From NCBI GenBank assembly GCA_001775055.1, contig MFBU01000014.1, forward strand, positions 120,535 to 184,534: a stretch of DNA of 64,000 nucleotides, given 5' to 3'. Position numbers and translations under genes: made by a program. Below are positions 14,243-64,000 of this stretch, piece by piece (within the stretch, counting starts at the first letter, position 1; each line of letters begins with the position of its first letter). The notes under the pieces are model-generated. The model searched no databases. It saw only the letters and a list, made by a program, of their open reading frames with translations, and had not been told where the DNA came from. The DNA comes from Candidatus Curtissbacteria bacterium RIFCSPLOWO2_02_41_11 (GTDB lineage: Bacteria; Patescibacteriota; Microgenomatia; Curtissbacterales; GWA2-41-24).

Positions 14243-14315
14243 AAACTATAGCCCAAAGTCATAGGTCTGAACTGTGCTTTGATTAAGATAATTCAAACAT
14301 AGAATAATTAGATAA

Positions 14316-15907: not shown

Positions 15908-16085
15908 TGAATTTTAAGAAAAACTTTAAAAAACTTGGTTTTCGAACCCCTTCCACATTTCGCATCAATGCAATCTTATCAGCCAACAAAATCCTAGTAA
16001 GGCACTTTAAAGGAAAGAAGAAATAACATAATTTCTAGTTTTAAAATCAACTTTATTCAAAAAGATATAAAATTTCTTCTCAATT

Positions 16086-16114
16086 TTGCTTTTTTCACAA
16101 ATTGTGTGTAAAAT
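16086..16114 (+). promoter_or_regulatory. sigma70-like promoter: TTGCTT -35, 17-nt spacer, extended TGTG-TAAAAT -10, ATG 7 nt downstream (near-leaderless)
   Basis: TTGCTT at 16086-16091. Spacer ttttcacaaattgtgtg. TAAAAT at 16109-16114. purP ATG at 16121. Confidence 0.35.
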
Positions 16115-16120
16115 ACCTCA

Positions 16121-22478: not shown

Positions 22479-22484
22479 TGCCTC

Positions 22485-50093: not shown

Positions 50094-50146
50094 TGGCGAA
50101 ATTATACTACAGTAGATTAGTGAATTTGGTAAAATATGTAATGTTT

Positions 50147-50217
50147 TGCCGGATCGTCTAATGGTAGGACCGCAGACTCTGGATCTGCGTATCTAGGTTC
50201 GAATCCTAGCCTGGCAG
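50147..50217 (+). tRNA. tRNA-Gln (anticodon CUG)
   Basis: Hand-folded. U1 (bacterial tRNA-Gln hallmark), acceptor tgccgga. D-arm gtct/aatggta/ggac. Anticodon arm gcaga-ctCTGga-tctgc (U33, CTG at 34-36). T-arm ctagg-ttcgaat-cctag. 3' acceptor cctggca plus discriminator g. One A7:C66 mismatch. No encoded CCA. Confidence 0.65.
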
Positions 50218-50362
50218 CTGTGGCGATAAGAAAATTTGGCGGGCTTGACTCGCCATAGGCGGGTTGAATGGGACGACGGATTTCCCGCCAATGGCGGGAT
50301 AAACTGGCTTGCCACGTAATTGCGTGGATCCGTTTATCTAGCTTGTCCCGCTCTAAAGCGGG

Positions 50363-50386
50363 GGTTCGAGTCCTAGTCCGGCAGCT
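50363..50386 (+). repeat. duplicated 3' fragment of tRNA-Gln (T-loop plus 3' acceptor strand), candidate att-site remnant
   Basis: ggttcgagtcctagtccggcagct versus ggttcgaatcctagcctggcagct at 50196-50219. The 3' strand tccggca of this copy pairs perfectly with the tRNA 5' acceptor tgccgga. Confidence 0.55.
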
Positions 50387-50464
50387 AAATTTTGGCCACT
50401 TTGTTAGCCTCAAAAATTATCAAAAATAGACAATTTTTGGGATAACCTGGCTTGGATTCGAACT

Positions 50465-51076: not shown

Positions 51077-51187
51077 GTATTGAATCTGAATGTCTATTTT
51101 AGTTTTGCAGAAACTGCACTGACTTCTGATAAACTAATTCGGGGTATTTGATCATTTCTACCCAATTTGCTGTTCGGAAATCATCAA

Positions 51188-51385
51188 CTACCCCAGCTCG
51201 TTTGTTTCTTTCGCCGTTAGAGAAGAATCAATCTTTCTCTTTATTCCTTTAGACTGTTTACCAATAAAATTTACAGGGCCATAAAAATGGACTTCAGTTT
51301 TGTTAAATGAATTAGTAGCTTCGGGGTGAAGTAAATCAGTTATTTTTGTCTTAAAGCTTGCTAAACCTTCAAGGATTTGTTTCAT
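51188..51385 (-). CDS. hypothetical small protein
   Basis: 65 aa, translationally coupled to the upstream ORF. Confidence 0.3.
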   Translation of the reverse strand: MKQILEGLASFKTKITDLLHPEATNSFNKTEVHFYGPVNFIGKQSKGIKRKIDSSLTAKETNELG

Positions 51386-51750
51386 TTTTTACCTAGTTCA
51401 ATAATAAAAACCTCTCCGATATCGGGTATGGTTTGTTTTTCCCAGTCATATCTTCCGGAATAAGTTTTCAAGTCTAGCCTGTTCGCTTTAAAGAAGGATT
51501 TGCCTGAAACAGTCGCCCCTGTTGTATCTCGGGTTATTTTAAGAATTCCGTTTTCTCGAACATTAATGAATTTAAATGCAATTGCTTCATTGCCGCTATC
51601 GTAAAATAACACGCAATATTTAAAGTTTGTAACGTTTGTTGATCTACAAAATCCAGAAGAAAGTCTTATGAGTCCGGATTTATTTATCCCAATTTTTGTA
51701 TCTCCTCTGGAATATACACCGTCGAACTTCTTGAATGAATAAGTTTTCAT
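51382..51750 (-). CDS. hypothetical protein
   Basis: 122 aa. Overlaps the next small ORF by ATGA, which suggests a two-gene operon. Confidence 0.35.
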   Translation of the reverse strand: MKTYSFKKFDGVYSRGDTKIGINKSGLIRLSSGFCRSTNVTNFKYCVLFYDSGNEAIAFKFINVRENGILKITRDTTGATVSGKSFFKANRLDLKTYSGRYDWEKQTIPDIGEVFIIELGKK

Positions 51751-52132: not shown

Positions 52133-53005
52133 ATGAATGATTTGTTAACAGAACTAGGTCAGTTAATTAATAAAAAAAACTTGTCTCGTGGAGCAAAGAA
52201 AAGACTAAGAGTAGATTTAAATGCGATAAGTTTGCGTCTGGTTAAATTTGAATACGAAACTAGTGGAATAGTTGAGAATACTTTTGACGTCCCGGAAACA
52301 TTTAGACGAATGTACAAGCATCTCGATACTTATTCGAAGATTGCTAAAACATGGAGTTCTATATTATCTAATCTTCCTATAGATAAACAGACAAACATTT
52401 TAGATCTTTGTCCCGGCTACGCACCAAAAATTGAGTTAGCTTTATTTTATCTCGGATATAGAGGAACCGTTACCATAATTGATGAGGATAATACTTCAAT
52501 GAAGCAACTTGTCAAATTTATGGCACTATTTAACCCCCAATTCAAAATTGTAACCATGAAACGAGATTTATTTTCTCCTCTCAAAGAAAAATTTCATCTT
52601 GCCGTTGGCAACCATATAATTGATGATCTCATATTACATTACTTTGCTAAGAAGGCTGGAATTAATACTAATGAGTTCTATGAAAACGAGCAGGCTCTTG
52701 TCGACTTTTGGAAAAGGGTTCTTTTAAATAAAAACGAAAACCAAAAAGAAATTACTCAAAAAATATCCGACATATTTAAAACAATTATTGCAAACGGAGG
52801 TTATTTATGCTTGTCGCAATACAAGAGTTATATGGATAAAATGCTAGACTTAGAGAAGGAATTTTTATTCTCGAGAGCAGTTTTTACAAAAATAATCAAA
52901 AATTTAATGAGAAGCGAATTTATCAATTTAAACGTTAAAAATTACGAAGCGAAAAATCAATATTTTTCTGCTCATGATGTTGTAATTTTAAAAAAAACAA
53001 AATGA
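52133..53005 (+). CDS. hypothetical protein (weak Rossmann/SAM-methyltransferase-like pattern)
   Basis: ILDLCPGYAPK ... TIIDED ... LAVGNHIIDDL loosely resemble MTase motifs I, II and IV. Overlaps the next gene (ATGA). Confidence 0.3.
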   Translation: MNDLLTELGQLINKKNLSRGAKKRLRVDLNAISLRLVKFEYETSGIVENTFDVPETFRRMYKHLDTYSKIAKTWSSILSNLPIDKQTNILDLCPGYAPKIELALFYLGYRGTVTIIDEDNTSMKQLVKFMALFNPQFKIVTMKRDLFSPLKEKFHLAVGNHIIDDLILHYFAKKAGINTNEFYENEQALVDFWKRVLLNKNENQKEITQKISDIFKTIIANGGYLCLSQYKSYMDKMLDLEKEFLFSRAVFTKIIKNLMRSEFINLNVKNYEAKNQYFSAHDVVILKKTK

Positions 53006-54150
53006 TGGAAACACGAAGTATTCAGTCTCGAGATCTAGTCGATTTACGTGTAAAGCTTACCAACCTTGCTCGGAATATTAGAAGAACAACAATACCGGAT
53101 GACGTCGAGCTAATTTACCCACAATCATCAAGAGATGATACAGTTTTTTTTAAAGGATCAGTATTAAAGAGAAAAAGAATCGTTCTACTTGCCCCTGCAT
53201 GTGTTACTGCAACATGCACTATGTGCCCTTTACCAAACGAGGCTCTTGATCGAAAAACCAGGCCCATTTCGCCCGAGCAAATCATTCAACAGTTCGAATC
53301 ATCTTTTGAGGGAGAAAGGTCTCTCGATGACTACGAGCTAATAACTGTTTACAATAATGGAAATTTCTTTGCCGATTTAGAACTAGACCGGGCAGTTCGA
53401 AAGCACATTTACAAAAGAGTGGGCGAGAGCAAAGCATCAATACTTGTTGTGGAGTCACTGCCGCAATTCATTACGCCAGAAAAGGTTGAAGAAGCAAAAG
53501 AGCTTCTAGGGCAAAAAGAACTTGCGGTGGCTATCGGTTTACAGTCATCCAACGATTTAGTTCGAGAACTTGCTGTAAACTCAACATGCACAAAAGCTGC
53601 TTTCGAAAGAGCTGTGCGGTTGTTGGGGGAGAATGGATATAAACCGCTCACATTTCTTATGATCAAACCCCCATTTTTGACTGAAAAGGAGGGAATCGAG
53701 GATGCTGTAGGCTCCATAAAATATCTAGCAAGTTTGGGTATTGATGACCCTATATTATGCGCAACTCGAGTGGCACCGAACACTGTAGCAATGCTCCTTC
53801 GTGAGAAAGGGCTTTTTAATCCGCCATGGATTTGGTCAGTTGTTGAGGTTCTAAAAAAGAGTTCAACTGTTAGTCCTAGCAGTAGACCTCGAGTAGTGTT
53901 ATCAGAATTGAAGCCAGAAATTAACTTAGATTCCGCATGTCCTCAAAATTGCGATTTATGCAGTACTCGAATTATAGATTTGATAGATTCCTACAATAAA
54001 ACCGGTGACGTAAAAGTTTTTAGAGATGCAGATTGTGATTGTAGGGAAACTTATAAAGCGTATGTTGATTCTGTAGAAAAAGACATGGGGCGAGTTTCCC
54101 TTTTGGAGAGAGTCAGAGATTTTTTGGATGGTATATTAATAGAAAGTTGA
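53002..54150 (+). CDS. radical-SAM-like TIM-barrel enzyme with atypical CX4CX2C cluster motif
   Basis: LLAPACVTATCTMCPL (Cys-x4-Cys-x2-Cys). AIGLQSSNDLVRELAVNST...LTFLMIKPPFLTEKEGIEDAVGSIKYLASLGIDDP resembles the GxQS.ND...NR / downstream pattern of HemN/ELP3/TIGR01212-type radical SAM proteins. Additional Cys cluster CPQNCDLC...DCDC. Confidence 0.4.
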   Translation: MMETRSIQSRDLVDLRVKLTNLARNIRRTTIPDDVELIYPQSSRDDTVFFKGSVLKRKRIVLLAPACVTATCTMCPLPNEALDRKTRPISPEQIIQQFESSFEGERSLDDYELITVYNNGNFFADLELDRAVRKHIYKRVGESKASILVVESLPQFITPEKVEEAKELLGQKELAVAIGLQSSNDLVRELAVNSTCTKAAFERAVRLLGENGYKPLTFLMIKPPFLTEKEGIEDAVGSIKYLASLGIDDPILCATRVAPNTVAMLLREKGLFNPPWIWSVVEVLKKSSTVSPSSRPRVVLSELKPEINLDSACPQNCDLCSTRIIDLIDSYNKTGDVKVFRDADCDCRETYKAYVDSVEKDMGRVSLLERVRDFLDGILIES

Positions 54151-55922
54151 TTGAGATGCCAAAGACATATATCAACCATTGAAGACTTTTCACTGAAACC
54201 TATATATTTCATAAAATTTTTGAAGTAAGGATAAGTTTGCGATAATAATACGGGCTTTTCTAAGCTCTTATAAAATCCCACATTGAGTCTCCATAATTTG
54301 ATTGAAAATTCCAACTCTTCCGTAGGAGGTATCATTGCTCTACTGCGAAGTGAAACATAAGGCAGTAGATAAGGAACTCGGCAAATTTCACCGTCTGGTA
54401 AAGTTACCACTAGCCCAGAATCTTTTGAACCAATAATAAAGTCTCTTAAATCTACTACATCGATCAAATTGAAACTTTTTCCTGGTACGTACTTGCCCGT
54501 CTTTAAATCTTCGTGTAATAGCTTCAAGGTACTTTCTATCTTTATTCTCCGGGGTAATAGCGATAAAACCTTTCCTCCTGTATACCCGGTCGCAACATCA
54601 TCATCCACCAAAACATATGTTCCACTTGGGATATCTGAAATTTGCTTATCAACTAAGGGGTATCCAAGTCTACCAATTACAGCTCTTGGTTCTAGCTGTC
54701 CGTCACAGATATCAAAAAGCCTGGATACATATAATCTGTACCCACCATTTGTACAAACATCCATGTTTATTACTTTTTTAGATTTGTTGAGTACGTTGAT
54801 AAAATTTTGTTGTGATTTTAGATTTACGACAACTATTGAGTCTTTCGAAAAAATGGCTTGCAAATAGTAGACGAAATCATTCAAAAAACCTCTTTTTGCT
54901 TCTAGAACTTTTTGTTCACCATGGGATTTTGATAGTTTTTCAAGGGCCCAAAGGCCATCATTTCTTACAGCGTAAATTTTTTTTAAGGAGTCGTCACTTT
55001 TATAGAAGTTTTGGAAACTTATTTTTTTTCTCAATTCGCTTGAGGAAATACTTGGCTTCGTCCTAGATTGAGATGTAAAAATAATGTTTTTGGGTTTTGC
55101 TATTGGAACTTCGCGTGCAACATCCTCAAGTTTACTTTCGTAGCCCTCTCTTTTTACACAAACGCAACTGCCTTTATCTATAAATGCTCTCGAAAAAACA
55201 GCATTATCACTACCGAAAACATAAACAACTTCAATTTTTAGTCCCAAATGAAATTGAAGATAACCCTCTAGTCTTAATATTGCATCGGTATAAGTTATCG
55301 GCACCTTGTTATATCGCGCTTCCCATGTGTCAATCATCAACCAATCGCTGTCACGGATTGCTTTCTCGCAAAGATCTATTCGCGAAGACGAATCAAGGTT
55401 TAATGAATCTGTGTATTTATTCCATACATATTCATCATGTGATGGTGATATATAACCGCCAACAACGGTTTTATTTAATTTCTCAACCTCTAATTTTGCG
55501 AGTTTCATCATTTCGATATGCCCCGTGTGAACGGGCGAGAATCCACCGGTAGAAAACAAGACAACTGGGTGAAAACGCTTGTCTTTTTTATGCCGCTGCA
55601 AATTATCCGAAATTTTCTGAAAAGGGGTGCATAACCAATTATGGAAATCTAATTTAGTAAGCGATCCTGGTTCAAGTCCATCATCAAAAAATCCCGCTTC
55701 AATTACCGATTTTATGCTTTTATAAGCAAAATAAGTTTTTGAAAGAAATGGGTCTCGTAATATTTTCCACGCAAGCCTGAGATCGTTTATTTCGTACTTA
55801 TTTTCTTTTTTTAACCTTAGATAAGCAAGATCCAATTTAGAAGCAACATCAGTTCTTTTTACCCCAAACAACTTCCAGAGGTCTTCATTATTTTTTATTT
55901 TTAAATACATTAGTTCTCCCAA
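54051..55922 (-). CDS. fusion protein: NMN/NaMN adenylyltransferase-like nucleotidyltransferase domain plus C-terminal type-I phosphoribosyltransferase (PRPP-binding) domain
   Basis: VVLFSTGGFSPVHTGHIEMM (the (H/T)xGH nucleotidyltransferase motif). ISPSHDEYV and WLMIDTWEA parallel eukaryotic/archaeal NMNAT blocks (ISPVGDAYKK, WVEVDTWES). C-terminal YVLVDDDVATGYTGGKV is the PRPP-binding motif of type I PRTases/PRPP synthetase. Confidence 0.5.
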   Translation of the reverse strand: MGELMYLKIKNNEDLWKLFGVKRTDVASKLDLAYLRLKKENKYEINDLRLAWKILRDPFLSKTYFAYKSIKSVIEAGFFDDGLEPGSLTKLDFHNWLCTPFQKISDNLQRHKKDKRFHPVVLFSTGGFSPVHTGHIEMMKLAKLEVEKLNKTVVGGYISPSHDEYVWNKYTDSLNLDSSSRIDLCEKAIRDSDWLMIDTWEARYNKVPITYTDAILRLEGYLQFHLGLKIEVVYVFGSDNAVFSRAFIDKGSCVCVKREGYESKLEDVAREVPIAKPKNIIFTSQSRTKPSISSSELRKKISFQNFYKSDDSLKKIYAVRNDGLWALEKLSKSHGEQKVLEAKRGFLNDFVYYLQAIFSKDSIVVVNLKSQQNFINVLNKSKKVINMDVCTNGGYRLYVSRLFDICDGQLEPRAVIGRLGYPLVDKQISDIPSGTYVLVDDDVATGYTGGKVLSLLPRRIKIESTLKLLHEDLKTGKYVPGKSFNLIDVVDLRDFIIGSKDSGLVVTLPDGEICRVPYLLPYVSLRSRAMIPPTEELEFSIKLWRLNVGFYKSLEKPVLLSQTYPYFKNFMKYIGFSEKSSMVDICLWHLNQLSINIPSKKSLTLSKRETRPMSFSTESTYAL

Positions 55923-56872
55923 CCCCCTGGAACAAACCTCTTGTAGATATCGAAATGGACAGAAGGCGATTTGCCCAAATATTTATGCCTGTTGTATTGA
56001 TGTATTTTTTCTAAACGCTTAGATAACTTTTCAAATTGTTTCTTCGACTTTGCGTTTAGTTTTTTAGAAAATTCTATCTTTTCTTTTCGAGTAAATGTTA
56101 GGTACGTGATATATAATTCCACAAACTCATATGTTGTTCCAAATACTTCTTCATCTGTTCTTCCATCAAACATATCACCACTTGGTTTTATATTGATAAT
56201 TTCCTCAGGAATATTTAAGATTTTTGCAACTCGACACACCTCACTTTTATGAATATCTGAAATAATTTGTAAGTCTACCATCCCATCTGAGGCTTTGCCA
56301 AAATACCCTAGATAAGCTCCTTCATCACGATTTGTAGTTCCACAGACTACTGCAGGAGAATTTGCCTGATTTAAAAGGCTAGTAATATAATAGAGAGTCG
56401 GCGTTTTTATATAAGCCGCTAACTGCCCGGCTGCCCAGTTTTTGCCTTTGAGATTAATTGACTTATCTATTGTGTTTTTAAGAACTGTGTGGCTCTTTGT
56501 TAAATCAACAACAATCTTTTTTGAATTGAAATACTTCGCAATCTCCTCTCCTCTTTTTGAAGCACCTTTTTGATTGGTTGCCGCTAATGGAGAAAAAACA
56601 GGCATCAAGATTGCATAAATATTTTTAATAGGTGAATTTTTGTGACGCGAGGCATTATGAACTATTCCCAAAACTACGGCAGAGTCAACGCCTCCGCTTA
56701 CAGCAACAACACAAGACTTTAGTTTAAAATCACTCATGTATCGATTCAGCAACATCGATTTATTTTTAATATAAAGCTGTGGATTAAAATCTCTTTTTGC
56801 ACGAATAATAGTAAGGACATCAAGTAATCCTTGCTCCAAAGTTTTTCCTGTTTGGGGATTATTAATTCTCAT
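55910..56872 (-). CDS. nadE: NH3-dependent NAD+ synthetase-like PP-loop amidotransferase
   Basis: SCVVAVSGGVDSAVV (SGGxDS PP-loop). GTTNRDEGAYLGYFGKASDGMVDLQIISD parallels NadE GTDHAAE.ITGFFTKYGDGGTDINPL. C-terminal TTYEFVELY parallels VTYDNIDDY. Confidence 0.65.
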   Translation of the reverse strand: MRINNPQTGKTLEQGLLDVLTIIRAKRDFNPQLYIKNKSMLLNRYMSDFKLKSCVVAVSGGVDSAVVLGIVHNASRHKNSPIKNIYAILMPVFSPLAATNQKGASKRGEEIAKYFNSKKIVVDLTKSHTVLKNTIDKSINLKGKNWAAGQLAAYIKTPTLYYITSLLNQANSPAVVCGTTNRDEGAYLGYFGKASDGMVDLQIISDIHKSEVCRVAKILNIPEEIINIKPSGDMFDGRTDEEVFGTTYEFVELYITYLTFTRKEKIEFSKKLNAKSKKQFEKLSKRLEKIHQYNRHKYLGKSPSVHFDIYKRFVPGGWEN

Positions 56873-56916
56873 TTTTGTAAATTGTAGAATGAATCTAAAA
56901 ATTTACCAAGAGAGTA

Positions 56917-57855
56917 TTATCCTGAGGTTCTGACATATCCATACCCTCCACCCTCTGAAGACCTACGAGGCGGACGAGGGGTAGGCGGATTATAAGCAGG
57001 AGATGAGGATGCAGAACTTGACGATCTTCTACTTCGACTAGGGCTGGTCACCTCTTCCTCCTCTGCTACTTCTTCTTTTTGCAGTGCCGCGATCAGGTCT
57101 ATAGCACCCTTATGAACTTCAACAATTGATACCAAAGACTCTGTACCGTCCCTGGCACTTTTCAGTGGAATTGTGATCGAGTTATTAACTGGGTCTTTAT
57201 CGATATTTGCAAAATCTGGTTGAAATTTGCTATCTTCCAGTTGTTTGGGCACATTAATTTTATCTATCCCTTTTTTAGACCCAACTACTATTTTATACTG
57301 ATTCTTTTTGCCACGTGTGAACACAAACACAATGTCTTCTTCCGGATCAAGTTCCTTTCCATTTTTATCTTCAAAAGAAAACGGTATTCTGGCAATTTGC
57401 GGTTTTAAACCCTCTCGTATCAAATTTCTTTCTGCAATTCCATTTGTAAGTAAATCAACGTTAATCGAATGAAGTTCGAAAGGGTTTTGGGATTTACTTT
57501 CGAAAGCTTGTCGGAGTTTTTCGCGAAGTTCTATAAGTTCTTCATCGTTGGTTAATTCTAGCGCAGATGTAATTCTAAAAAAAAATGCTTCATCTCCATT
57601 CTCAATAGAGTCGGCAAGTGCCTTTTTTACTTTTTCTCTTTCTTCTCCCAAGCGTCTCTCGTTAATCCGAATCTGGCCATCAACAATCATAATTGGTGTG
57701 TCGGATTCTAGCTCTACTATTTCTGTATAAATTAAACCAGTTAAGAATCTTGGCCCCATCGAAGCCAACGGAATTCCCTCAGTAGGTTGGTCAGTTCCAA
57801 GGGGACTATCTGTTACTTGATCTGGGTGTTCTGATTGTTCAGATGGTCTTGGCAC
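56917..57855 (-). CDS. hypothetical protein with Ser/Arg/Pro-rich low-complexity C-terminus
   Basis: 312 aa. C-terminal SPSRSRRSSSSASSSPAYNPPTPRPPRRSSEGGGYGY. No motif recognised. Confidence 0.35.
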   Translation of the reverse strand: MPRPSEQSEHPDQVTDSPLGTDQPTEGIPLASMGPRFLTGLIYTEIVELESDTPIMIVDGQIRINERRLGEEREKVKKALADSIENGDEAFFFRITSALELTNDEELIELREKLRQAFESKSQNPFELHSINVDLLTNGIAERNLIREGLKPQIARIPFSFEDKNGKELDPEEDIVFVFTRGKKNQYKIVVGSKKGIDKINVPKQLEDSKFQPDFANIDKDPVNNSITIPLKSARDGTESLVSIVEVHKGAIDLIAALQKEEVAEEEEVTSPSRSRRSSSSASSSPAYNPPTPRPPRRSSEGGGYGYVRTSG

Positions 57856-57895
57856 AGTTAGTATTTTATCATGAGATTATTATATGCTCTAAAGC

Positions 57896-59362
57896 TTAAC
57901 TTATCTGCCAGTCGTGTTGCCATTGTTCAACTTGGACGCCCTTCTTTGCAGCTCTTCCAACCCACTCTGGAGGTCTTGGATTGTTTTTTGACTCGCCTAG
58001 TACATCTTCTACTCCGGACGCTTTGATTAAATCCAAAACTATTTCTTGATCTTCTCTATACATTCCTGCCAAATATTCTTGATAAACTGCCTCCATGAAT
58101 AAATCGTGCCAGTTATCGTTGGTTTTAACCTGCCCACTTCTGAATAACTCGTCAACATCTATAAGGGTCGTTTGGGCAGCTTTTATGCTATCAAGAATCC
58201 TTAATAAATTACGTCGAGTGTAAACGTAAGAACCTCCTTTGATGTCCTTTTCTGATCCAATTTTGCCAAGAGACGCTAAGTTTGAAAGATCACCTTGAAA
58301 AGCGGCTAACCATTTAATAACGGCATCCACGTTTGGTATGTTTTCAAGATCTCTGTACTCTGTTCTTACGTCTTTTTCTCCCTTATAACGCCTGTTCTGC
58401 CAAACTATATCGGGTTGTTCACCTTTGATTAAAAATCTCAAAAACTCTTCATATTCCTTAGTGGTTAATCCTTCAACTATTCTATCTTGCAGTCTGTTTC
58501 TCCTTGCCTCGGATTCTTCAAACCTGCCTCCACCGATGCCAAAAGGATTTTGAGCTGCTACATACCAATACCTGCTATCAAGACCAATAACCCCAGGTAC
58601 AATTCCACCATTGTCAATTATTGATTGCTCCTCAGGCGTTAAAGGTCTTATAATTTCTCCTTCATGTTCGACAATTCTTAATTGAGCCATTCTTTCAATT
58701 GCTGAGTTTTCCCGCTCAATAACATTACCCGGTGCTAAATTTGGTTCGTCAGCTCCATAAACGCTGCCATACATCATAGATCCTGCGAGTGTTCCATTTT
58801 GCCAGCGCCATTGGATAGTATCATCGAGACCATCAATCCCAAGAGCAGCGGCAATTTTTTTACTTTCAAGGAGCGTCAGAGGTCTTGATTGTTTCTCTGC
58901 AGACTCGACAATTTCTTTGAGGCTCTCAGGTAAGTCTGGATCAGCTAGGAGTTCTTTAAAACGAACTGCAAGTTTGGCATCAGCGGGTACAAATCTTCCA
59001 ATTGTGTCACCAGGATCGGAATCCTTAGAATAATTATGTCTCAGATAACTCCTGTTAGTAAGCGCACAAATCACCTCAGCTGCATATGATTTCGAAACAC
59101 CTGTAGGGCCTTCGTTTCTAGATGCAATCCCTCCTTTGAGCCGAACTGCCATATCTCTTATCAAAAGAACAGTTGGTGTATCCCAACAGGTAGAGGCTTT
59201 TAATAGCTCGATTTTCGGGATGAAACGTCTAGCATTAACATCTTCAGGCAATGGTAACCTGTCTAAAACAACATCCAGAACCCTTACTTGGTTTTCTTTA
59301 GGATATTCCTGAATGACTGGGACTTCCCCTAATTTTCGTTCAATGTCTCCCTTTTCTGTCAT
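57896..59362 (-). CDS. AAA+ ATPase, MoxR/dynein-related (AAA_5-like) clade
   Basis: Walker A GPTGVSKS. Walker B-like VYGADEPNLAP. Start is placed at Met 59362 (MTEKGD...), 1 nt after the upstream stop. The tracked ORF extends further in a non-coding frame. Confidence 0.55.
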   Translation of the reverse strand: MTEKGDIERKLGEVPVIQEYPKENQVRVLDVVLDRLPLPEDVNARRFIPKIELLKASTCWDTPTVLLIRDMAVRLKGGIASRNEGPTGVSKSYAAEVICALTNRSYLRHNYSKDSDPGDTIGRFVPADAKLAVRFKELLADPDLPESLKEIVESAEKQSRPLTLLESKKIAAALGIDGLDDTIQWRWQNGTLAGSMMYGSVYGADEPNLAPGNVIERENSAIERMAQLRIVEHEGEIIRPLTPEEQSIIDNGGIVPGVIGLDSRYWYVAAQNPFGIGGGRFEESEARRNRLQDRIVEGLTTKEYEEFLRFLIKGEQPDIVWQNRRYKGEKDVRTEYRDLENIPNVDAVIKWLAAFQGDLSNLASLGKIGSEKDIKGGSYVYTRRNLLRILDSIKAAQTTLIDVDELFRSGQVKTNDNWHDLFMEAVYQEYLAGMYREDQEIVLDLIKASGVEDVLGESKNNPRPPEWVGRAAKKGVQVEQWQHDWQIS

Positions 59363-59363
59363 T

Positions 59364-59822
59364 TCAACTAACCTTTCGTAAGTCCAACAGGTGGTCTGTG
59401 ATCTCCCGCATTTTATCTTCTGTATTTTGCTCTGACTCGTTTGTGACGAGGAAGATTTTTGCTTGACTCGGGATTGTAGTGTTTCGCAGGTCAAATGACC
59501 CCTGATGAATATCAAACTTGTTTGATTCCCGCAGTTTTATCAGTTGATCGTAAATAACTGGATCAAAATTTACAGAATTTGCGAAAACAACTATTACTTT
59601 TCCTTTTGAAAGATCCTCGGCAAGGCTTTGGAGAAATCCGAATACATCATTTTTTTCTTCATGAGTAACTTCCGCATAATCTACGTTCAAAAGACTAAAA
59701 AGGTCCCTGATCTGGTTTCTAACATTTGTAGGCGAAATAATTCCCTCTATTGTGTTATACGAGGAGCTGTGAGGGTGTAAATGGAAACTTAGAAATCTAG
59801 CAAGCTGTTTTTGTGCGTTCAT
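59364..59822 (-). CDS. hypothetical protein (possible N-terminal partner of the AAA+ ATPase)
   Basis: 152 aa. Stop TGA then A then ATG of the AAA+ gene (TGAaATG), i.e. two separate adjacent genes rather than a frameshift. Confidence 0.35.
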   Translation of the reverse strand: MNAQKQLARFLSFHLHPHSSSYNTIEGIISPTNVRNQIRDLFSLLNVDYAEVTHEEKNDVFGFLQSLAEDLSKGKVIVVFANSVNFDPVIYDQLIKLRESNKFDIHQGSFDLRNTTIPSQAKIFLVTNESEQNTEDKMREITDHLLDLRKVS

Positions 59823-59823
59823 A

Positions 59824-62148
59824 TTAACGATAGAAAAACTCTGGATGCTTTACCATATACTCCATGATTATAGCAAAAGCCCTGCCGAATTCTTCGGCGT
59901 CTGTGTATGAGTTTCCAACCTCATCAAAATTAGCACCAAGAGCTCTCGCAATATCTCTTTTTACTCTTTCATGGAGTTCAGGATAAGAATCATTAACGAA
60001 ATCGGTTCCTGGACCGATACCAAAGCCTGCTGTTACTACGCTTCTGTCAGACCTTACTTCACGAAGCAAATCGAGTACTTCTTCCTGCGATGTGCTGGTT
60101 GGCTCACCATCTGTTAAGGTAATAAAATAATTGTTGTCCAGTGGTAGACTGGACATTCTTCTTTTTAAATATCTGTAACTTGCTTGTGTAGCCTCATATG
60201 TAGGTGTACCACTTCCTCCACAATCGGATAGCATTTTTCCAAGTACATCTCTATCTTGATTTGTTAGTTTCTTTTTTCCAAAATCCTTATACAATCTGAC
60301 TTTTCCTTTGAAACTGTCTCTAAAACCTATAATTGCAAATTCAAGACCGAATCTATTCATTACTTCAGAAAAGGCTGCGACCATCTTAAACGTTTCAAAA
60401 ATTTTACCTTCCATTGATGGACTAAGATCAACTAAAAGTAGAAATCTATAGCTTTTTTCGGTGGGTCTACCTTTCGCTTCAAAAGCATTATATTTTCTGG
60501 GATCTGCCTCCATTTGCATTGCTTTTCTCATTGATGGCCTCAAACCGGTTGAGGAATAGCGAATACTCGGTTCTTCCGTCGGTTCAAAAAGTGTTTTAAA
60601 TTCTTTTTCTAGTCTTCTTCTGACAGCATCTACATCAGGCATAGATAGGACAGATTGGTAGGGATCCTCTTGAATTGTTTCGAGTGCTTCTTTTCGCCTT
60701 TTTTCCATATCTCTTGCAACTCTTTCTGCCTCCTTTTGTTGCTCCTCTTTTGCTTGACTAGTTTTTTCTCCTACTCGCCTTTCTTTGTGAGATTCTTGGT
60801 GTCGAGGATCATTTATATGCCCTTTTAGCTTTTCGTTTGCTTCGTCTTCTACATCCTCCAGATCTTCTCTTGCTCTCTGCTCGAGACTGTCTTTCGACTC
60901 ACTCGAAAGATTATCGTAAGCATCTTCTATAGCTTTCTTTGTTTTGTCAGAAAAGTCGTCCCAAGGAATTCTCATGTCAGATCCATTCTCACTTCGACCA
61001 TCCTCTTCTCTGCCTTGAGCACTCGATCCTTGTGTTCCCTCAGCAGGTTCAGCACTTTCTTCTTGCACATTCATACCTTGTTCACTACCAGAAGAATCTC
61101 CTGACTGTTCTCCTTGCGTTTGTTGCGTTTGACCATTAGCCCCAGATTGACCGTCTTCTCCTGTCTGTTTTTCTTGATCTTTCTCTGCTCTTTCTTGCCC
61201 TTGAGGTTCACCAGACTGCTTGGGACCTTTTTGGCCTTGTTGTCGATTAGCCTCTTTTACTTTTTCTCTAATTTCGTCTTGTACATCTTTAGGTAGCGCA
61301 TCAAACGGTATAACCATAATTTGTCCTCCTCCATGCTGGCCCTGGCCACCACCTTGCTGATCTTGAGAGAGCATGTCTTTTATCATATTGACCATATTCT
61401 GGTCTTTTAAGGATTCCTCTACTAATTGTTTATATTTGGGCCAGATCTTTTCTATGAAGACTTCAGTGCTTGCGATAGCTTCTCTCTGAACATCAAATTC
61501 ATCCTTAGTTGTGGGGGTTATTCGGTAAAACTCATCAAATGCGTCGATCGTTTCCCTAATTGTTCTTCTGACATCCTCATCTGGGATTTCTTCCAAAAAA
61601 TGTTCTTTGTCTTCTTCAGTCTTGAGCCCATCTGTAAACTCTCTTTTGTACCAATGATGTATTATTTCTCCTCCCCATTGCATGAATTTAGGTACGTACC
61701 CTAATGAATTCCGGGCGTCTGCTAGCATGCCTTTGTAGTCTAAGCCTCCTCCAGGACTCAGGTCGCGTTCTATATACGCTCTGATCCAGTCTCTGGAGCC
61801 AGGCCTCATACTCATACCGGCTTGGTTTGCTCTGGGATCCTCACAAGCGTTGAAACCAAAGGAAAAACCTGGTTCTTGCCATAAATCAGTAACGTGTTCC
61901 GCTCTTGATACGAGTCTATGATTACCTTCATGAGCAGCAATACCTTTGACAACATCCTCGGGTTCTGTCGCCAAGTCCTTAGCATCCATATTTACGTGAT
62001 TCTTAACAAAATCCCAATGCCAACCACTTCCCCATGGACCAACACCAACTGTCATGCCATAATCTCCACCCATAAAAAGTGCAATTACATCTGCCTTTCT
62101 TCTTATAGTTTCGTCTATCTGGGGTTGTCTTTCGGTTTGATCATTCAT
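59824..62148 (-). CDS. large VWA-domain protein with N-terminal HExxH (putative zincin-like) region and acidic/Gln-Gly-rich linker (CbbO/NorD/DUF2201-like MoxR partner)
   Basis: C-terminal MIDAS LLLVDLSPSMEG ... T ... D (von Willebrand A). N-terminal AAHEGNHRL (HExxH). Central (Q/G/E)-rich low-complexity segment. 774 aa. Confidence 0.6.
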   Translation of the reverse strand: MNDQTERQPQIDETIRRKADVIALFMGGDYGMTVGVGPWGSGWHWDFVKNHVNMDAKDLATEPEDVVKGIAAHEGNHRLVSRAEHVTDLWQEPGFSFGFNACEDPRANQAGMSMRPGSRDWIRAYIERDLSPGGGLDYKGMLADARNSLGYVPKFMQWGGEIIHHWYKREFTDGLKTEEDKEHFLEEIPDEDVRRTIRETIDAFDEFYRITPTTKDEFDVQREAIASTEVFIEKIWPKYKQLVEESLKDQNMVNMIKDMLSQDQQGGGQGQHGGGQIMVIPFDALPKDVQDEIREKVKEANRQQGQKGPKQSGEPQGQERAEKDQEKQTGEDGQSGANGQTQQTQGEQSGDSSGSEQGMNVQEESAEPAEGTQGSSAQGREEDGRSENGSDMRIPWDDFSDKTKKAIEDAYDNLSSESKDSLEQRAREDLEDVEDEANEKLKGHINDPRHQESHKERRVGEKTSQAKEEQQKEAERVARDMEKRRKEALETIQEDPYQSVLSMPDVDAVRRRLEKEFKTLFEPTEEPSIRYSSTGLRPSMRKAMQMEADPRKYNAFEAKGRPTEKSYRFLLLVDLSPSMEGKIFETFKMVAAFSEVMNRFGLEFAIIGFRDSFKGKVRLYKDFGKKKLTNQDRDVLGKMLSDCGGSGTPTYEATQASYRYLKRRMSSLPLDNNYFITLTDGEPTSTSQEEVLDLLREVRSDRSVVTAGFGIGPGTDFVNDSYPELHERVKRDIARALGANFDEVGNSYTDAEEFGRAFAIIMEYMVKHPEFFYR

Positions 62149-62936
62149 TGGTATTTATTACATATATTAAATGGCTTGTTGTAAGAGAGCATATTTTCGA
62201 TGATAATATCGCTGGCTTCTCTTAGATTTTTATTTTTAATTAACCCTGAAAAAATATTGATCCCTGGTGAAATAAAGAGATTACTAACTGCGTAGGTTGG
62301 TCTATGTTTTCGAACATCTTCAGTGACTAATTCTAAGCAAATATATCCGAGCCTGGGAAAGCTGTTCATCACTTTTTTAGCAGTTTCAATAATTTGCGGG
62401 CTTATGCTGTCAGTTATATTTTCATAATCGTAATTACCTTCGATCAAAACCATCTTTCCATTTTTTACTATTCTCTTAAGGTCGACTCTTTTTGAATAAA
62501 TTTTTAGAGGTATTTGCAATGGATCATTCGAATTTATTCTTTTAATGTTCTCTTGTTTTATTAGATCGTTTAATTTTGTAACACCATCTACCTTTAAATA
62601 AACTTTCTTCTCTAAAAGAGCGTTGTAAAAATGGTTATTTGTGATAAAAACTCGTATTTTATCGTGATTACTGTAACTGTTTACCACCACCTTTATTTTA
62701 GAACCTTTTAATATTTCAGTCCAAAAGTGTCTACGTGATAGTACGATTCCCCACATATAAGGTATTGAAGGTGTGAAATCTCCGTAAAATTCATAGCTGT
62801 TGCCCTTAAAGTTTATTGAATATATTGCTGTTCCTTTAAGTCTTGTGAATGTGGCGCCCTTATTTAATAACTCTTTTGCGATCTTTTTCGACGCAGTAGG
62901 AAGGTCAAAATCAACAATTCCTTGTTTTGTTTTCAT
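62145..62936 (-). CDS. hypothetical protein, possibly degenerate ATP-grasp-like
   Basis: 263 aa, translationally coupled (ATGA) on both sides. Weak VYLKVDG / GYICLEL / LFISPG resemblance to ATP-grasp elements. Confidence 0.3.
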   Translation of the reverse strand: MKTKQGIVDFDLPTASKKIAKELLNKGATFTRLKGTAIYSINFKGNSYEFYGDFTPSIPYMWGIVLSRRHFWTEILKGSKIKVVVNSYSNHDKIRVFITNNHFYNALLEKKVYLKVDGVTKLNDLIKQENIKRINSNDPLQIPLKIYSKRVDLKRIVKNGKMVLIEGNYDYENITDSISPQIIETAKKVMNSFPRLGYICLELVTEDVRKHRPTYAVSNLFISPGINIFSGLIKNKNLREASDIIIENMLSYNKPFNICNKYQ

Positions 62937-63925
62937 ATTACGGGAGGAAAAATAACATCTACTATTGCGTTTGCAACATCTCTTGACTTTCCTTTCTCGG
63001 GCATCATATGCAAAGACAATCCAGGAGCGCTATTTAATTCACAGACCTTGTAGTCATCCATATTTTTGGAAATATCACTGCATAGGAGATCAATACCCAC
63101 AAAGGGCACATTTAGAGCATTTAATATTGCTTTTGCAAGTTTTTTGTAAGAAAGATGCATACTATCTGTAACATCGTAACAGTTTCCTCCAGTTGAAACA
63201 TTTGAATTCTTTCGCAGAAATACTTTTTGTCCTTTTGTAGGAGTCGCAGAAAAGCTTAAACCCTGTTTCTTAAGATGATTTTTAGAAATATCGTCTATTG
63301 CAATTTTGCATAAACAAGTATTTCTAGGATTCATCCGTCTATAATTTTCTACTTTAATTAGTTTCCTAATTGTGCTTTTTCCGTCACCCGTTATATTCGC
63401 TGGGGTCCTTTCTACTGCGGCGATGAAACCGCTTTGAGTAACAAAAATACGATATTCCTTTGCTTCAAACTGTTTTTCGATGAGGAAATAAGCCGACTGG
63501 TTGTATTTCGATAGGAAAGTAACAATTGCAATTTTGAGATCCCTAACACTGTTAATATCCATAATCACGTTTTCACCATGAGAACTAATAGTTGGTTTCA
63601 CTACAACAGGAAAGCCAATTTCTCTTGCGTAGGTAAGTGCTGTTTTTTTGTAGTCTCCGTCAAAAATCTCGCCAGTATTAACCTTGAACCCTTTACTGCT
63701 TAGAAACTTTTTTGCATAGTATTTATCATCAATAATGATTCCTTTAGTAAAGGGAACCAAATTAGTGTAGATGTCATACAATACTTCCTTGTGTCCCTTG
63801 TAGCTTGCTTGGACGAAGTTTGTTTTTCTAATTGGTTGCAATGCCACGCCTCTTTTTCTCATTGCTTCCAGCAAGAGCCTCGAATTAAATGAATGTTTTT
63901 TAAATAAAACATCAATACTATCCAT
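62933..63925 (-). CDS. ATP-grasp ligase (cyanophycin-synthetase-N-terminal / RimK-like)
   Basis: FPVVVKPTISSHGENVIM (central ATP-binding). RKNSNVSTGGNCYDVTDSMH parallels the CphA NLSTGG.A.DVTD.VH motif. VCELNSAPGL (E-x-N...PG catalytic loop). Confidence 0.6.
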   Translation of the reverse strand: MDSIDVLFKKHSFNSRLLLEAMRKRGVALQPIRKTNFVQASYKGHKEVLYDIYTNLVPFTKGIIIDDKYYAKKFLSSKGFKVNTGEIFDGDYKKTALTYAREIGFPVVVKPTISSHGENVIMDINSVRDLKIAIVTFLSKYNQSAYFLIEKQFEAKEYRIFVTQSGFIAAVERTPANITGDGKSTIRKLIKVENYRRMNPRNTCLCKIAIDDISKNHLKKQGLSFSATPTKGQKVFLRKNSNVSTGGNCYDVTDSMHLSYKKLAKAILNALNVPFVGIDLLCSDISKNMDDYKVCELNSAPGLSLHMMPEKGKSRDVANAIVDVIFPPVI

Positions 63926-64000
63926 AATTTTCCTAAAACGTACGCTTGATTATAGTATAGTCAGGGTTCAATTCAAGAATACATAAAAAATACCCGAAGA

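Follow-up and report, generated by a model that had tools for sequence, protein, structure and literature searches.

Which activity could unite two ATP-grasp genes, a VWA/AAA pair and genes for NAD+ synthesis in a single locus, and was this locus acquired horizontally, as an earlier note on this DNA had proposed? The ten open reading frames that the note had described were all recovered at their positions (10/10) in the window, the whole stretch of 64,000 nucleotides analyzed here. The genes and neighboring features are:

G1: 62933..63925, minus strand, ATP-grasp ligase, predicted to be active, 330 aa
G2: 62145..62936, minus strand, degenerate ATP-grasp paralog, 263 aa
G3: 59824..62148, minus strand, zincin-like N-terminal domain, linker, helical region and C-terminal VWA domain
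G4: 59364..59822, minus strand, 152-aa partner
G5: 57896..59362, minus strand, AAA_5 (MoxR/midasin-type) ATPase, 488 aa
G6: 56917..57855, minus strand, 312 aa, disordered S/R/P-rich C-terminal region, candidate substrate or client
C-terminal tail motif of G6: 56920..56994, minus strand, YNPPTPRPPRRSSEGGGYGYVRTSG, aa 288-312
G7: 55910..56872, minus strand, NAD+ synthetase NadE
G8: 54051..55922, minus strand, NMNAT domain fused to a C-terminal half with a PRPP-loop-like motif
G10: 53002..54150, plus strand, radical-SAM enzyme of the RaSEA (TIGR01210) family
G9: 52133..53005, plus strand, divergent class-I SAM-dependent methyltransferase fold, 290 aa
Promoter-like site: 63949..63976, minus strand, TTGAAT-16-TATAAT, directly upstream of the G1 start
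tRNA-Gln(CTG): 50147..50218, plus strand, adjoins the module, not a member
tRNA-Gln 3'-end copy: 50363..50385, plus strand, 23 nt, 20/23 identical

The genes G1-G10 are real and form a conserved unit: a ten-gene system of ultra-small groundwater CPR bacteria whose probable role, judging from sequence, is to modify and cleave the tail of a single dedicated protein. The system is rare and undescribed: the searchable literature yielded no account of this gene set, in line with the earlier note. Tight chaining of the minus-strand genes was confirmed for five of the seven junctions. G1/G2 and G2/G3 overlap by 4 nt each, a single nucleotide lies between G3 and G4 and between G4 and G5 (taking the ATG at 59362 as the start of G5, as in public gene calls), and G7/G8 overlap by 1 nt with an ATG start or 13 nt with a TTG start. 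The remaining two (G5/G6, 40 nt; G6/G7, 44 nt) are gaps of a size that cannot be called tight. On the opposite strand G9 and G10 overlap by 4 nt, and G10 shares 100 nt with the convergent G8, at the 3' ends of both. The promoter-like site is a weak consensus match only, and the region has no more such sites than shuffled sequence leads one to expect.

The earlier note had read the locus as a horizontally acquired island of higher GC content, whose main job might be the restoration of NAD. The GC shift was not found: windowed GC is 0.34-0.42 in the module region and 0.32-0.42 elsewhere in the window, the per-gene GC of the module is 0.31-0.415 compared to 0.390 ± 0.032 for 41 other window genes, and GC3 is slightly lower than in the rest of the window, not higher. 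Pooled codon usage of the module does differ, with an RSCU distance of 0.35 compared to 0.14 ± 0.02 for random subsets of window genes matched in size, which may reflect that the module lies on the strand opposite to nearly all comparison genes. The tRNA-Gln and the copy of its 3' end are present as reported (chance expectation 0 matches), and on a longer public contig two tRNA-Gln(CTG) genes surround an 18-kb segment with the module. However, only 145 nt separate the fragment from the tRNA; it is not located at the segment's far end and therefore does not bracket the module, and the two tRNA genes are inverted, not direct. A tRNA adjoins the module only in the two closest genomes (in locus L010 the same tRNA-Gln directly follows G9) and not in other loci. 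No integrase was found, relatives of the G5 AAA protein are absent from viral contigs and from phage and plasmid records, and only two of the ten genes are NAD genes. A mobile NAD-resynthesis island at tRNA-Gln is thus largely refuted by composition and locus comparison, and we regard it as highly improbable.

The search for co-localized homologs in other genomes was strongly positive, in support of the earlier view of one functionally linked, unusual unit. A core of seven genes (G9, G1, G2, G3, G4, G5, and G6) is kept in about 15 related loci of Microgenomates and other CPR bacteria; G9 and G1-G6 occur together in every related locus having enough flank (L005, L006, L007, L010, L016, L021, L022, L023, and the P0027 contig). 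The neighborhood is conserved despite REARRANGEMENT, and as gene order is shuffled and flanking genes differ between loci, the linkage is not simple inherited synteny. That the convergent pair belongs to the unit is borne out in other genomes, where the homolog of G9 directly precedes the ATP-grasp gene within one operon. Parts of the module also exist separately: in L024 and L027 the VWA(zincin)-small-AAA triad stands by itself, next to one further, unrelated gene, and L026 has the ATP-grasp, methyltransferase, radical-SAM, and tail-protein genes without VWA, AAA, or NAD genes. With the patterns used, only 2 of 185,579 species representatives matched; the distribution covers Microgenomates, a MAG labeled Saccharibacteria, and Margulisbacteria. 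The flanks are variable, with toxin-antitoxin or resolvase genes in the vicinity.

Within G3, the zincin-like N-terminal domain (HEGNH 73-77, E103/D104) is followed by a variable G/Q/E-rich linker (~270-395), a conserved helical region and, at the C-terminus, a VWA domain whose MIDAS is complete (D574-x-S-x-S578, T648, D680). These motif residues are all invariant among ten orthologs. The VWA assignment is confirmed by Pfam (1.1e-5), and the best PDB profile matches are the midasin linker and MIDAS (3e-5) and CobT (1.7e-3). G4 (146-162 aa) is found in every locus, including distant ones, always between the VWA and AAA genes; it has no Pfam or PDB matches and no relation to the AAA family by hhalign (probability 0.1). 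In G5 the Walker A (GPTGVSKS, 85-92), Walker B (D205-E206), and sensor-1 (AAQNP, 269-273) residues are invariant in 19 sequences, and identity across the family is 52-77%. G5 itself has no Pfam match; its MoxR-like nature is nevertheless supported, as its orthologs bear AAA_5 (PF07728) and its profile matches PDB entries of midasin and of CbbQ (0.018). It also matches phrog_249, 'porphyrin biosynthesis' (1.3e-9).

Both ATP-grasp genes proved genuine, one of them degenerate. G1 is closest to the cyanophycin synthetase G domain and the GshB half of GshAB (NCBIfam TIGR02068, 2.9e-70, profile positions 164-473 only; NF002688, 2e-57; Pfam RimK, 1e-9), families that have in common the addition of an amino acid at a peptide C-terminal carboxylate. 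Its catalytic motifs VVVKP (107-111), NSNVSTGG (240-247), and C-E-L-N (295-298) are kept in all orthologs, and G1 is predicted to be an active ligase. G2 cross-matches G1 in tblastn (21-29% identity). Full-length versions (319-329 aa) exist in L007 and L022; the short forms are without the central ATP-binding subdomain and have S-N-L or G-N-I in place of the E-x-N motif, which points to G2 probably being a non-catalytic partner of G1. G9, listed earlier as an unknown protein, is a divergent class-I methyltransferase and a universal core member, and several mRNA-cap guanine-N7 methyltransferases are among its top structural neighbors. G10 is a radical-SAM enzyme, as the earlier note had it (Pfam Radical_SAM, 5e-7; TIGR01210, 3.3e-57, 194.1 bits, under the cut-off of 212.15). 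Its cluster motif is Cx4Cx2C (67-75), and further Cys motifs lie toward the C-terminus (313-320, 345-347). Its orthologs are found in L005, L010, L023, and L026. Radical-SAM genes are optional across loci, missing from the complete operons L007, L021, and P0027 contig, and where present are RaSEA-like or RlmN/Cfr-like, the latter at 62-120 bits, far under the family cut-offs. As these families otherwise act on RNA purine bases, a nucleotide substrate is as compatible with them as a peptide. Peregrinibacteria have a fusion protein that combines an ATP-grasp domain with a radical-SAM domain of the SPASM peptide-maturase type.

The C-terminal tail of G6 (consensus ...PRRSSEGGGYGYxxVSG) is disordered yet very conserved, with a mean majority-residue fraction of 0.77, compared to 0.61 in the folded core and 0.22 in the preceding linker. 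The penultimate Ser is near-invariant, and nearly all orthologs have an aromatic residue 3-8 positions from the end. Similar S/Y-rich tails are present at the equivalent position on non-homologous proteins (L025, L026; Margulisbacteria and Peregrinibacteria loci). Because the fold of G6 matches nothing, its candidacy as substrate or client of the system is argued from position and tail conservation only.

The NAD genes are genuine. G7 (PP-loop SGGVDS, 59-64) matches Pfam NAD_synthase (1.1e-31) and TIGR00552 (105.9 bits, cut-off 63.65), confirming NadE. G8 had been described as an NMNAT-phosphoribosyltransferase fusion. The NMNAT part holds (GGFSPVHTGH, 126-135; ISSSELR, 292-298; Pfam CTP_transf_like, 1.7e-6, over cut-off; TIGR00482, 2e-15, under cut-off; best PDB matches eukaryote-type NMNATs), but for the C-terminal half no match was obtained in Pfam, NCBIfam, or PDB; the only sign of a possible phosphoribosyltransferase is a segment that comes close to the PRPP-loop motif (YVLVDDDVATGYT, aa 436-448). 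Reading frames, most junctions, and most families of the earlier description stand; the GC shift and the phosphoribosyltransferase identity of this half are not confirmed. Genes for the synthesis or import of NAD are part of the operon in 13 of the 14 informative loci, located at its 5' end, at its 3' end or at both, and their type varies: NadE with NMNAT-PRT in the window, L005, L010, L011, and L023, and PnuC with NadR (TIGR01526, 4e-83) in L006, L007, L008, L013, L016, L021, the P0027 contig, and L022 (a fragment). The swap occurs even inside a clade with almost identical G6 tails. More distant relatives have Macro and SLOG (L025) or two Nudix proteins (L023) that replace or supplement these genes. 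The PnuC-NadR pair is the same kind of cassette as NARP3 from phages (PMC13464706). Half of the NAD-resynthesis idea holds: these genes supply NAD from within the operon but are not what the module is for.

Tentatively, we favor a reading in which the tail of G6 would be ligated and methylated, and then gripped, remodeled and cut by a VWA/AAA/zincin machine, with NAD+ as a consumed co-substrate. The region is read as a composite of three sub-modules, each of which is also found alone. For tail modification, G1, together with its inactive paralog G2, would activate the C-terminal carboxylate for the addition of an amino acid or amine; methylation would fall to G9 and, in this locus, a radical step to G10. 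In client handling, the MIDAS of G3 may grip the tail or its modified end, G5 with G4 may pull or remodel by ATP, and the zincin domain may cut the tail, releasing or trimming it. G8 and G7 would supply NAD+ (base to mononucleotide to dinucleotide to NAD+), most plausibly as donor of ADP-ribose or another nucleotide moiety; the supply may be hard-wired because the process consumes NAD+. We infer this step, since none of the core proteins showed an ADP-ribosyltransferase, sirtuin, TIR, or other domain that consumes NAD. Sequence comparison, on which all of the evidence is based, shows the gene set, its conservation, the domain identities, the intact catalytic motifs, and the conserved tail; G6 as the substrate, the sequence of steps, and any use of NAD+ are inferred from these. 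The focus on a peptide is supported by the substrates of the G1 families, the invariant HExxH and MIDAS of G3, the G6 tail being more conserved than its core, the S/Y-rich tails of Margulisbacteria and Peregrinibacteria, and the SPASM fusion. There are precedents: published vWA-MoxR systems are coupled to a zincin, to a precursor whose C-terminal peptide is conserved, and to a radical-SAM enzyme of the SPASM type (PMC7159879), and a ribosomally made peptide undergoes radical-SAM cross-linking followed by ADP-ribosylation from NAD+ (PMC12912966). Against tail processing stand the missing NAD-consuming domain, the cap-methyltransferase neighbors of G9, and the complete operons without radical-SAM genes; moreover, the NAD genes might be the only NAD route in ~1-Mb genomes, co-regulated for other reasons.

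The embedded NAD genes, the Macro, SLOG, and Nudix genes of relatives, and radical-SAM families of purine-base chemistry would also suit a pathway in which a modified nucleotide is made from NAD or ADP-ribose and possibly linked to an amino acid or a peptide. Here the radical-SAM enzyme and methyltransferase would decorate purine or ribose, the ATP-grasp enzyme add the amino acid, VWA/AAA act as assembly chaperone, and G6 serve as scaffold or carrier. We consider this unlikely, as the relatives of G1 use peptide C-termini, the zincin peptidase and peptide-binding MIDAS are invariant, the RlmN/Cfr scores are low, and the hyper-conserved G6 tail is left without a role. A conflict or defense function overlaps with tail processing and differs only in biological purpose: VWA and MoxR would sense an invader or host cue in an NTP-dependent manner, the processed G6 peptide would be released as a toxin or signal, and the NAD cassette would shield the producer from NAD loss, like phage NARP2 and NARP3. 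The patchy, rare distribution, variable flanks with toxin-antitoxin or resolvase genes, and the NARP3-like pair fit this. The closest published analogy to the MoxR-VWA conflict system suggested earlier is a vWA-MoxR system coupled to peptide processing by a zincin; effectors of the Macro, Nudix, and SLOG kinds are also known from such systems (PMC7159879). Their defining third component (VMAP-type) is absent here, as are STAND and a caspase-like effector, PADLOC has no match for any of the ten proteins, and the AAA protein is unusually conserved, unlike fast-evolving defense genes, and without homologs in phages, plasmids, or viral contigs. This function also seems rather doubtful.

An ordinary AAA_5/VWA chaperone (CobS/CobT-, CbbQ/CbbO-, or NorQ/NorD-like) for a neighboring enzyme, for example inserting metal or cluster into the radical-SAM enzyme, with housekeeping NAD genes kept by genome compaction, is improbable. 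The CobT match of the VWA (CobT_C is faintly seen in relatives), the phrog_249 match of G5, and the compactness of CPR genomes are in line with it, and MoxR-VWA pairs are generally maturation factors (PMC13036017). A CobN-, Rubisco-, or NOR-like client is absent, however, and the zincin domain and the G6 tail are left unexplained. In addition, the triad is kept in operons without a radical-SAM gene (L007, L021), and the two non-homologous NAD routes at differing operon positions argue against passive linkage.

The ten open reading frames called in the earlier note were all recovered at the same coordinates, in two sets on opposite strands:

63925 down to 54051, minus strand: G1 (ATP-grasp), G2 (degenerate ATP-grasp), G3 (zincin-VWA), G4 (152-aa partner), G5 (AAA_5), G6 (tail protein), G7 (NadE) and G8 (NMNAT fusion with a PRT-like half)
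52133 to 54150, plus strand: the convergent pair G9 (class-I methyltransferase) and G10 (RaSEA-like radical SAM)

The minus-strand genes had been described as tightly chained, which is the case for five of the seven junctions (4-nt overlaps, 1-nt gaps, 1/13-nt overlap); the other two are gaps of 40–44 nt. The most likely start of the AAA gene G5 is the ATG at 59362 (488 aa), in agreement with public gene calls and orthologues, and not the upstream TTG; the mechanical ORF begins at this TTG, 51 codons upstream (59515–59363), and would share 152 nt with G4. At their 3′ ends, the convergent G8 and G10 have 100 nt in common (54051–54150), an overlap also present in L010, the nearest other species (109 nt). 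The part of G8 within it is an extra S/T-rich tail (…SFSTESTYAL), which the L005 and L023 orthologues do not have.

Gene content was compared by tblastn of the window proteins against all fetched public genome and metagenome loci. Conservation of the gene neighborhood, which the earlier note had suggested as a check, was confirmed: the seven core genes (G9 and G1–G6) occur together wherever the contig is long enough, while gene order is rearranged and the flanks differ between loci. In four loci (L007, L016, L021, and L006) the G9 homolog lies directly upstream of G1, and the convergent pair of the window is therefore part of the system. The AAA family is small, with 39 clusters, two matches among the GTDB species representatives and eleven metagenome loci. 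The triad of zincin-VWA protein, small protein and AAA protein is found alone, with an unrelated fourth gene, in other Patescibacteria (L024, L027). Conversely, a locus from Peregrinibacteria (L026) carries the set of ATP-grasp, methyltransferase, radical-SAM and tail-protein genes without VWA, AAA or NAD genes, and one of its ATP-grasp domains is fused to a SPASM-type radical-SAM peptide maturase. Just downstream of this ATP-grasp/radical-SAM/methyltransferase cluster, on the opposite strand, L026 encodes a 627-aa TCAD9-domain protein (9946–11829, minus strand). We take TCAD9 to be a ‘ternary-complex-associated’ domain of vWA-MoxR conflict systems; the main text of PMC7159879 does not use the term. 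No description of this gene set was found in the searchable literature. The window itself derives from a Candidatus Curtissbacteria genome (CPR/Microgenomates) from Rifle aquifer groundwater; identical copies of the G3 VWA protein are present on ANAN16 scaffold_93 (174 kb) and on JGI contigs, and the AAA protein is named UT12_C0002G0003 (Curtissbacteria GW2011_GWC2_38) at NCBI.

The NAD-supply genes vary within this otherwise constant operon. The NadE-like gene proposed earlier is indeed a NadE, as G7 scores 105.9 against TIGR00552 (cut-off 63.65) and contains the PP-loop SGGVDS at residues 59–64. For G8, described as an NMNAT-PRT fusion, the NMNAT half is intact, with HTGH within residues 126–135, ISSSELR at 292–298, a Pfam match to PF01467 above the cut-off and PDB matches to NMNAT1 and NMNAT3; against TIGR00482 it scores 57 bits, under the cut-off of 112. 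The PRT half is putative, resting on a PRPP-loop-like motif (YVLVDDDVATGYT) kept in four orthologues, and this C-terminal half gave no Pfam, NCBIfam or PDB match. NadE and the NMNAT-PRT fusion occur in the window, L005, L010, L011, and L023. Six other loci (L006, L007, L008, L016, L021, and the P0027 contig) carry PnuC with a bifunctional NadR-type protein (TIGR01526, 4e-83), a cassette that is absent from the window and that lies at either end of the operon or has its genes on both sides; L013 has PnuC alone, and L022 has the PnuC/NadR type as a fragment. The swap falls among genomes with nearly identical G6 tails. As the supply pathway is exchanged non-orthologously within a constant operon, there is strong evidence that NAD+ matters to the system. 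Such an exchange of two unrelated NAD-supply routes amounts to a rare natural experiment, and it points to a need for NAD+ in the chemistry of the system itself. The divergent locus L023 has two extra Nudix proteins, and in L025 (Margulisbacteria) a Macro-domain protein and a SLOG protein are present instead of NAD genes. No ADP-ribosyltransferase, sirtuin or TIR domain was found in the system proteins.

The PnuC and NadR pair was recently described in phages as the NAD-restoring cassette NARP3 (PMC13464706), and the sister loci hold exactly this pair, but here the genes are embedded in a larger chromosomal CPR operon and not in phages. The NadE and NMNAT fusion of the window would reach the same product, NAD+, in a manner resembling the Preiss-Handler route. 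Unlike the standard routes, the window version has the putative PRT-like domain fused and no type II nicotinate/nicotinamide PRT.

The combination of an HExxH motif and a VWA/MIDAS domain on a single protein, noted previously, is borne out: G3 consists of a zincin-like domain (HExxH with E103/D104), a variable G/Q/E-rich linker and a VWA domain with a complete MIDAS, and all of these residues are invariant. In every locus G3 lies one small gene upstream of the AAA gene, as a vWA/MIDAS partner. The assignment of G5 as a MoxR-like AAA+ protein with a small upstream partner also held; it belongs to AAA_5 and has all catalytic residues (GPTGVSKS 85–92, D205-E206, AAQNP 269–273, and R280/R290/R294), which are invariant across 19 sequences. 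PF07728 is recorded on several G5 orthologues, and the PDB profile matches are midasin and CbbQ. The small partner G4 has no family assignment and no PDB match; a motif-based guess that it is a degenerate AAA half was rejected (hhalign probability 0.1).

Midasin was the top PDB match of both the G5 and the G3 profile, and many midasins were retrieved from the representative library, with whole-protein E-values of 9e-33 (PDB) and 1e-30 to 1e-64 (library). These very low values arise because scores are summed over six or more domains; scored per domain, G5 matches the midasin AAA modules with 10–42 bits and CbbQ with 17 bits. Single-domain MoxR proteins are missing from the match list because of the size of the representative library. 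A special relationship to midasin was therefore downgraded after per-domain scoring, with midasin modules as the nearest solved relatives by a modest margin. Nor is G5 a midasin: that eukaryotic protein combines six tandem AAA modules with a D/E-rich linker and the MIDAS on one chain; G5 has a single AAA module and the MIDAS is on a separate protein. G5 is a member of the AAA_5 family, and the midasin likeness is real as architecture only (AAA_5, low-complexity linker and MIDAS). This pairing of AAA_5 with an acidic or low-complexity linker and MIDAS/VWA is shared with midasin/Rea1, CobS/CobT, CbbQ/CbbO, and NorQ/NorD. The MIDAS partners in midasin, CobT, CbbO, and NorD lack the zincin domain of G3, however, and no chelatase, Rubisco or NOR client such as those of the three bacterial pairs is present here. 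An aerobic CobS/CobT cobaltochelatase was rejected, since no locus contains CobN or cobalamin genes and the similarity to CobT is weak (1.7e-3), with a faint CobT_C match. In Margulisbacteria (L025, 10001–13291) the AAA relative is a single polypeptide of 1096 aa with two G5-like AAA units, a type of tandem duplication that the evolution of multi-AAA proteins such as midasin would have required.

Both genes proposed to encode ATP-grasp enzymes are homologous to that fold, G1 being intact and G2 degenerate. By best match, G1 is closest to cyanophycin synthetase (its G-domain region, 2.9e-70), to GshAB (the GshB half) and to N-acetylglutaminylglutamine synthetase, all of them families in which an amino acid is joined onto a peptide C-terminal carboxylate. 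G1 has the fold and catalytic motifs of such ligases (VVVKP 107–111 and C-E-L-N 295–298, kept in nine orthologues), and it is accompanied in the system by a dedicated protein whose C-terminus is conserved. It is not CphA1, which has N, G, and Mur-ligase M domains: the match covers profile positions 164–473 only, the G-domain part without the Mur-ligase domain, at 237 bits against a cut-off of 850. In contrast to cyanophycin synthetase, G1 has a degenerate paralogue as its partner; in short forms of G2 the central ATP-binding subdomain is deleted and the E-x-N metal site is replaced. Judged by these residues, G2 is probably a catalytically inactive paralogue of G1. The candidate substrate, G6, also differs from that of cyanophycin-type ligases, as its tail is rich in Ser, Tyr, Gly, and Arg and is not acidic.

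The predicted model of G6 is moderately confident (pLDDT 71.5) and a fold search returned no match to any known fold. Its last 25 residues are predicted to be disordered, and the tail is more conserved (0.77) than the folded core (0.61) or the preceding linker (0.22). Within the core clade the tail consensus is Y-x-P-P-x-P-x-x-P-R-R-S-S-E-[SG]-G-G-Y-G-Y-x-x-V-S-G; distant orthologues retain the penultimate Ser and, a few positions before the C-terminus, an aromatic residue. Similar endings are found on two proteins that are unrelated to G6 and lie at the equivalent place. In L025 the AAA gene is followed by that of the Macro protein, which ends in …TSPTYKKSY, and in L026 the ATP-grasp gene is preceded by that of a 483-aa repeat protein, which ends in …SSYGSSSRRASYSYSSSGE. 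A PQQ-like E-x3-Y cross-link in the tail was rejected, as the Glu is missing from more distant orthologues, and so was amidation of a C-terminal Gly, as the orthologues end in different residues (G, N, R, Y, S, H).

The first gene of the convergent pair, previously left as an unknown protein, could be classified: G9 has the Rossmann-type fold, motif I and acidic motif II of a class I SAM-dependent methyltransferase, and its top structural neighbors include cap methyltransferases. The second was rightly called an atypical radical-SAM gene. G10 is a close relative of archaeal RaSEA and scores 194.1 against TIGR01210 (3e-57), below the cut-off of 212.15, making it a related family member and not the equivalog. 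In Euryarchaeota, RaSEA acts with ArcS in archaeosine synthesis (PMC11298593), but G10 has a bacterial host and a class-I methyltransferase as partner gene; ArcS was not found in any locus examined, and neither ArcS nor ArcTGT is near G10. Radical-SAM genes are optional, with none in L007, L021, and the P0027 contig, and their families differ: RaSEA-like with the NadE type, RlmN/Cfr-like with G9 paralogues (62–120 bits, far under the cut-offs), and B12-type in L023 and L025.

The closest described relatives are vWA-MoxR systems coupled to peptide processing (PMC7159879; Kaur, Burroughs, Iyer, Aravind 2020), in which a zincin and a SPASM radical SAM occur with a precursor whose C-terminal peptide is conserved (e.g., FxSxx-COOH), and Macro, Nudix or SLOG domains are sometimes present as effectors. 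Shared with these are the MoxR-clade AAA+ with its vWA/MIDAS partner, a putative zincin peptidase, a protein conserved in its C-terminal peptide with an aromatic residue and Ser near the end, radical-SAM genes nearby, and Macro, Nudix or SLOG proteins in some relatives. Examined for peptide processing, the system shows the invariant HExxH and E103/D104 of G3 and the conserved tail of G6, whose motif differs from FxSxx-COOH. It also differs in that the zincin is fused onto the vWA protein, the tail protein of about 300 aa contains a folded domain and is no small fast-evolving peptide, and the gene set is extended by an ATP-grasp pair, a class-I methyltransferase and NAD-supply genes. A VMAP/FtsH third component is absent, as are effectors of the AP-ATPase, TIR or caspase type; Pfam and NCBIfam searches detected no VMAP, FtsH, beta-propeller or effector domain of the ternary systems. 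The hosts are tiny-genome CPR, whereas vWA-MoxR systems occur in multicellular actinobacteria or cyanobacteria. A known defense system was rejected, as PADLOC matched none of the ten proteins. A further parallel is minviopeptin, a ribosomal peptide that receives a radical-SAM cross-link and is ADP-ribosylated from NAD+ before cleavage (PMC12912966). Thus, a radical SAM, peptide cleavage and NAD+-dependent modification do occur together on a gene-encoded peptide. The minviopeptin cluster has a recognizable ADP-ribosyltransferase (MicD) and an alpha-KG iron enzyme, neither of which was found here, and lacks an AAA/VWA machine, ATP-grasp and NAD-supply genes.

The system is real and conserved, and is best filed among the MoxR-VWA-linked peptide or protein processing systems, with a hard-wired NAD supply that is unprecedented. 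The most economical reading, which we put forward tentatively and at somewhat less than an even chance, has three parts. A tail-modifying set (G1/G2, G9, and the optional radical SAM) would work on G6; the MIDAS/AAA/zincin machine would then grip, remodel and cut G6; and the NAD+ supply would feed a consumed co-substrate. By analogy, the vWA-MoxR/zincin/SPASM systems (PMC7159879) and minviopeptin (PMC12912966) serve as precedents that make such tail processing plausible. The main rival is a nucleotide-centered pathway, for which the purine-chemistry affinities of the radical-SAM families and the cap-methyltransferase structural neighbors of G9 speak. A peptide-nucleotide conjugate could unite the two readings, and the biological purpose may lie in conflict, in signaling or in a cofactor-like role. 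In a further reading, in which the G6 tail would be extended or activated by the ATP-grasp pair, methylated, joined to an ADP-ribose or nucleotide moiety from NAD+, and then extracted and cut by a split ‘mini-midasin’ (AAA_5 and linker-MIDAS with a built-in zincin), the operon would make a protein-borne NAD-derived conjugate, which we regard as unlikely.

CPR bacteria (Patescibacteria) have genomes of about 1 Mb and have discarded most pathways. Some have nevertheless kept this ten-gene operon despite genome reduction, with an AAA protein that is 52–77% identical across its family. If the tail-processing model is true, it would represent a new pathway of protein or peptide modification, in which a C-terminal ligase of the ATP-grasp type works with a methyltransferase and, optionally, a radical SAM, all coupled to MoxR/VWA/zincin, and it would provide a defined client for a MoxR-VWA pair, most of which have no known client. 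Should the conjugate be made, CPR bacteria would have a peptidyl-nucleotide product or signal of a new class, and the operon would be a present-day instance of the kind of bacterial AAA_5/MIDAS pair that could have given rise to midasin-type machines. The protein set is compact enough for biochemistry, and a short synthetic tail peptide, PRRSSEGGGYGYVRTSG, is a ready candidate substrate.

The region had also been interpreted as a horizontally acquired island of higher GC content next to a tRNA. Both the tRNA-Gln(CTG) and a 23-nt partial duplicate of it, from the 3′ end and with 20/23 identity, were confirmed. The integrated island is unsupported, since an integrase and bracketing direct repeats are lacking and GC does not deviate; the repeat lies 145 nt from the tRNA, and the tRNAs of the longer public contig L001 are inverted. 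Windowed GC is 0.34–0.42 in the region and 0.32–0.42 elsewhere in the window; per gene, it is 0.31–0.415 in the module against 0.390 ± 0.032, with a slightly lower GC3. Codon usage does deviate (pooled distance 0.35, against 0.14 ± 0.02 for random subsets), but we give this little weight because the module lies on the opposite strand from nearly all comparison genes. A mobile-element origin was rejected, as no integrase was found and searches of viral contigs, phage records and plasmid records gave no relative of the AAA protein. In L010, the nearest other species, the tRNA comes directly after G9, and the remaining loci have no tRNA at that place.

On L001 two inverted, inward-pointing tRNA-Gln(CTG) genes (3676–3747, plus strand; 21931–22002, minus strand) surround an 18-kb segment that bears the module, the second being the tRNA at 50147–50218 of the window. 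The part of this segment beyond the window end carries genes for a B12 radical SAM, an alpha/beta hydrolase and a nucleoside-deoxyribosyltransferase-like protein. At its acceptor end, the tRNA fragment (50363–50385) is closer to the distant tRNA-Gln copy than to the adjacent one. A 98-aa ORF antisense across the tRNA-Gln and the fragment (50117–50413, minus strand) is almost certainly no gene. Between the fragment and G9 (50465–51750) lie three ORFs, U3 (203 aa), U2 (65 aa), and U1 (122 aa), which have no family match and look like a small insertion, since they are missing from the closest relative L010. L024 contains an overlapping pair of 122-aa and 65-aa genes (17673–18235) of the same sizes as U1 and U2, with no tblastn similarity to them. 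The genes in the remainder of the window have ordinary bacterial roles (SecDF, RecJ, tRNA synthetases, purine synthesis), and among them is a long same-strand purine-nucleotide run at 5421–24026 with PurD, adenylosuccinate lyase, GMP synthase and a fused PurS-PurL-type FGAM synthase of 946 aa. CPR bacteria are usually said to be short of much biosynthesis, which makes this run notable.
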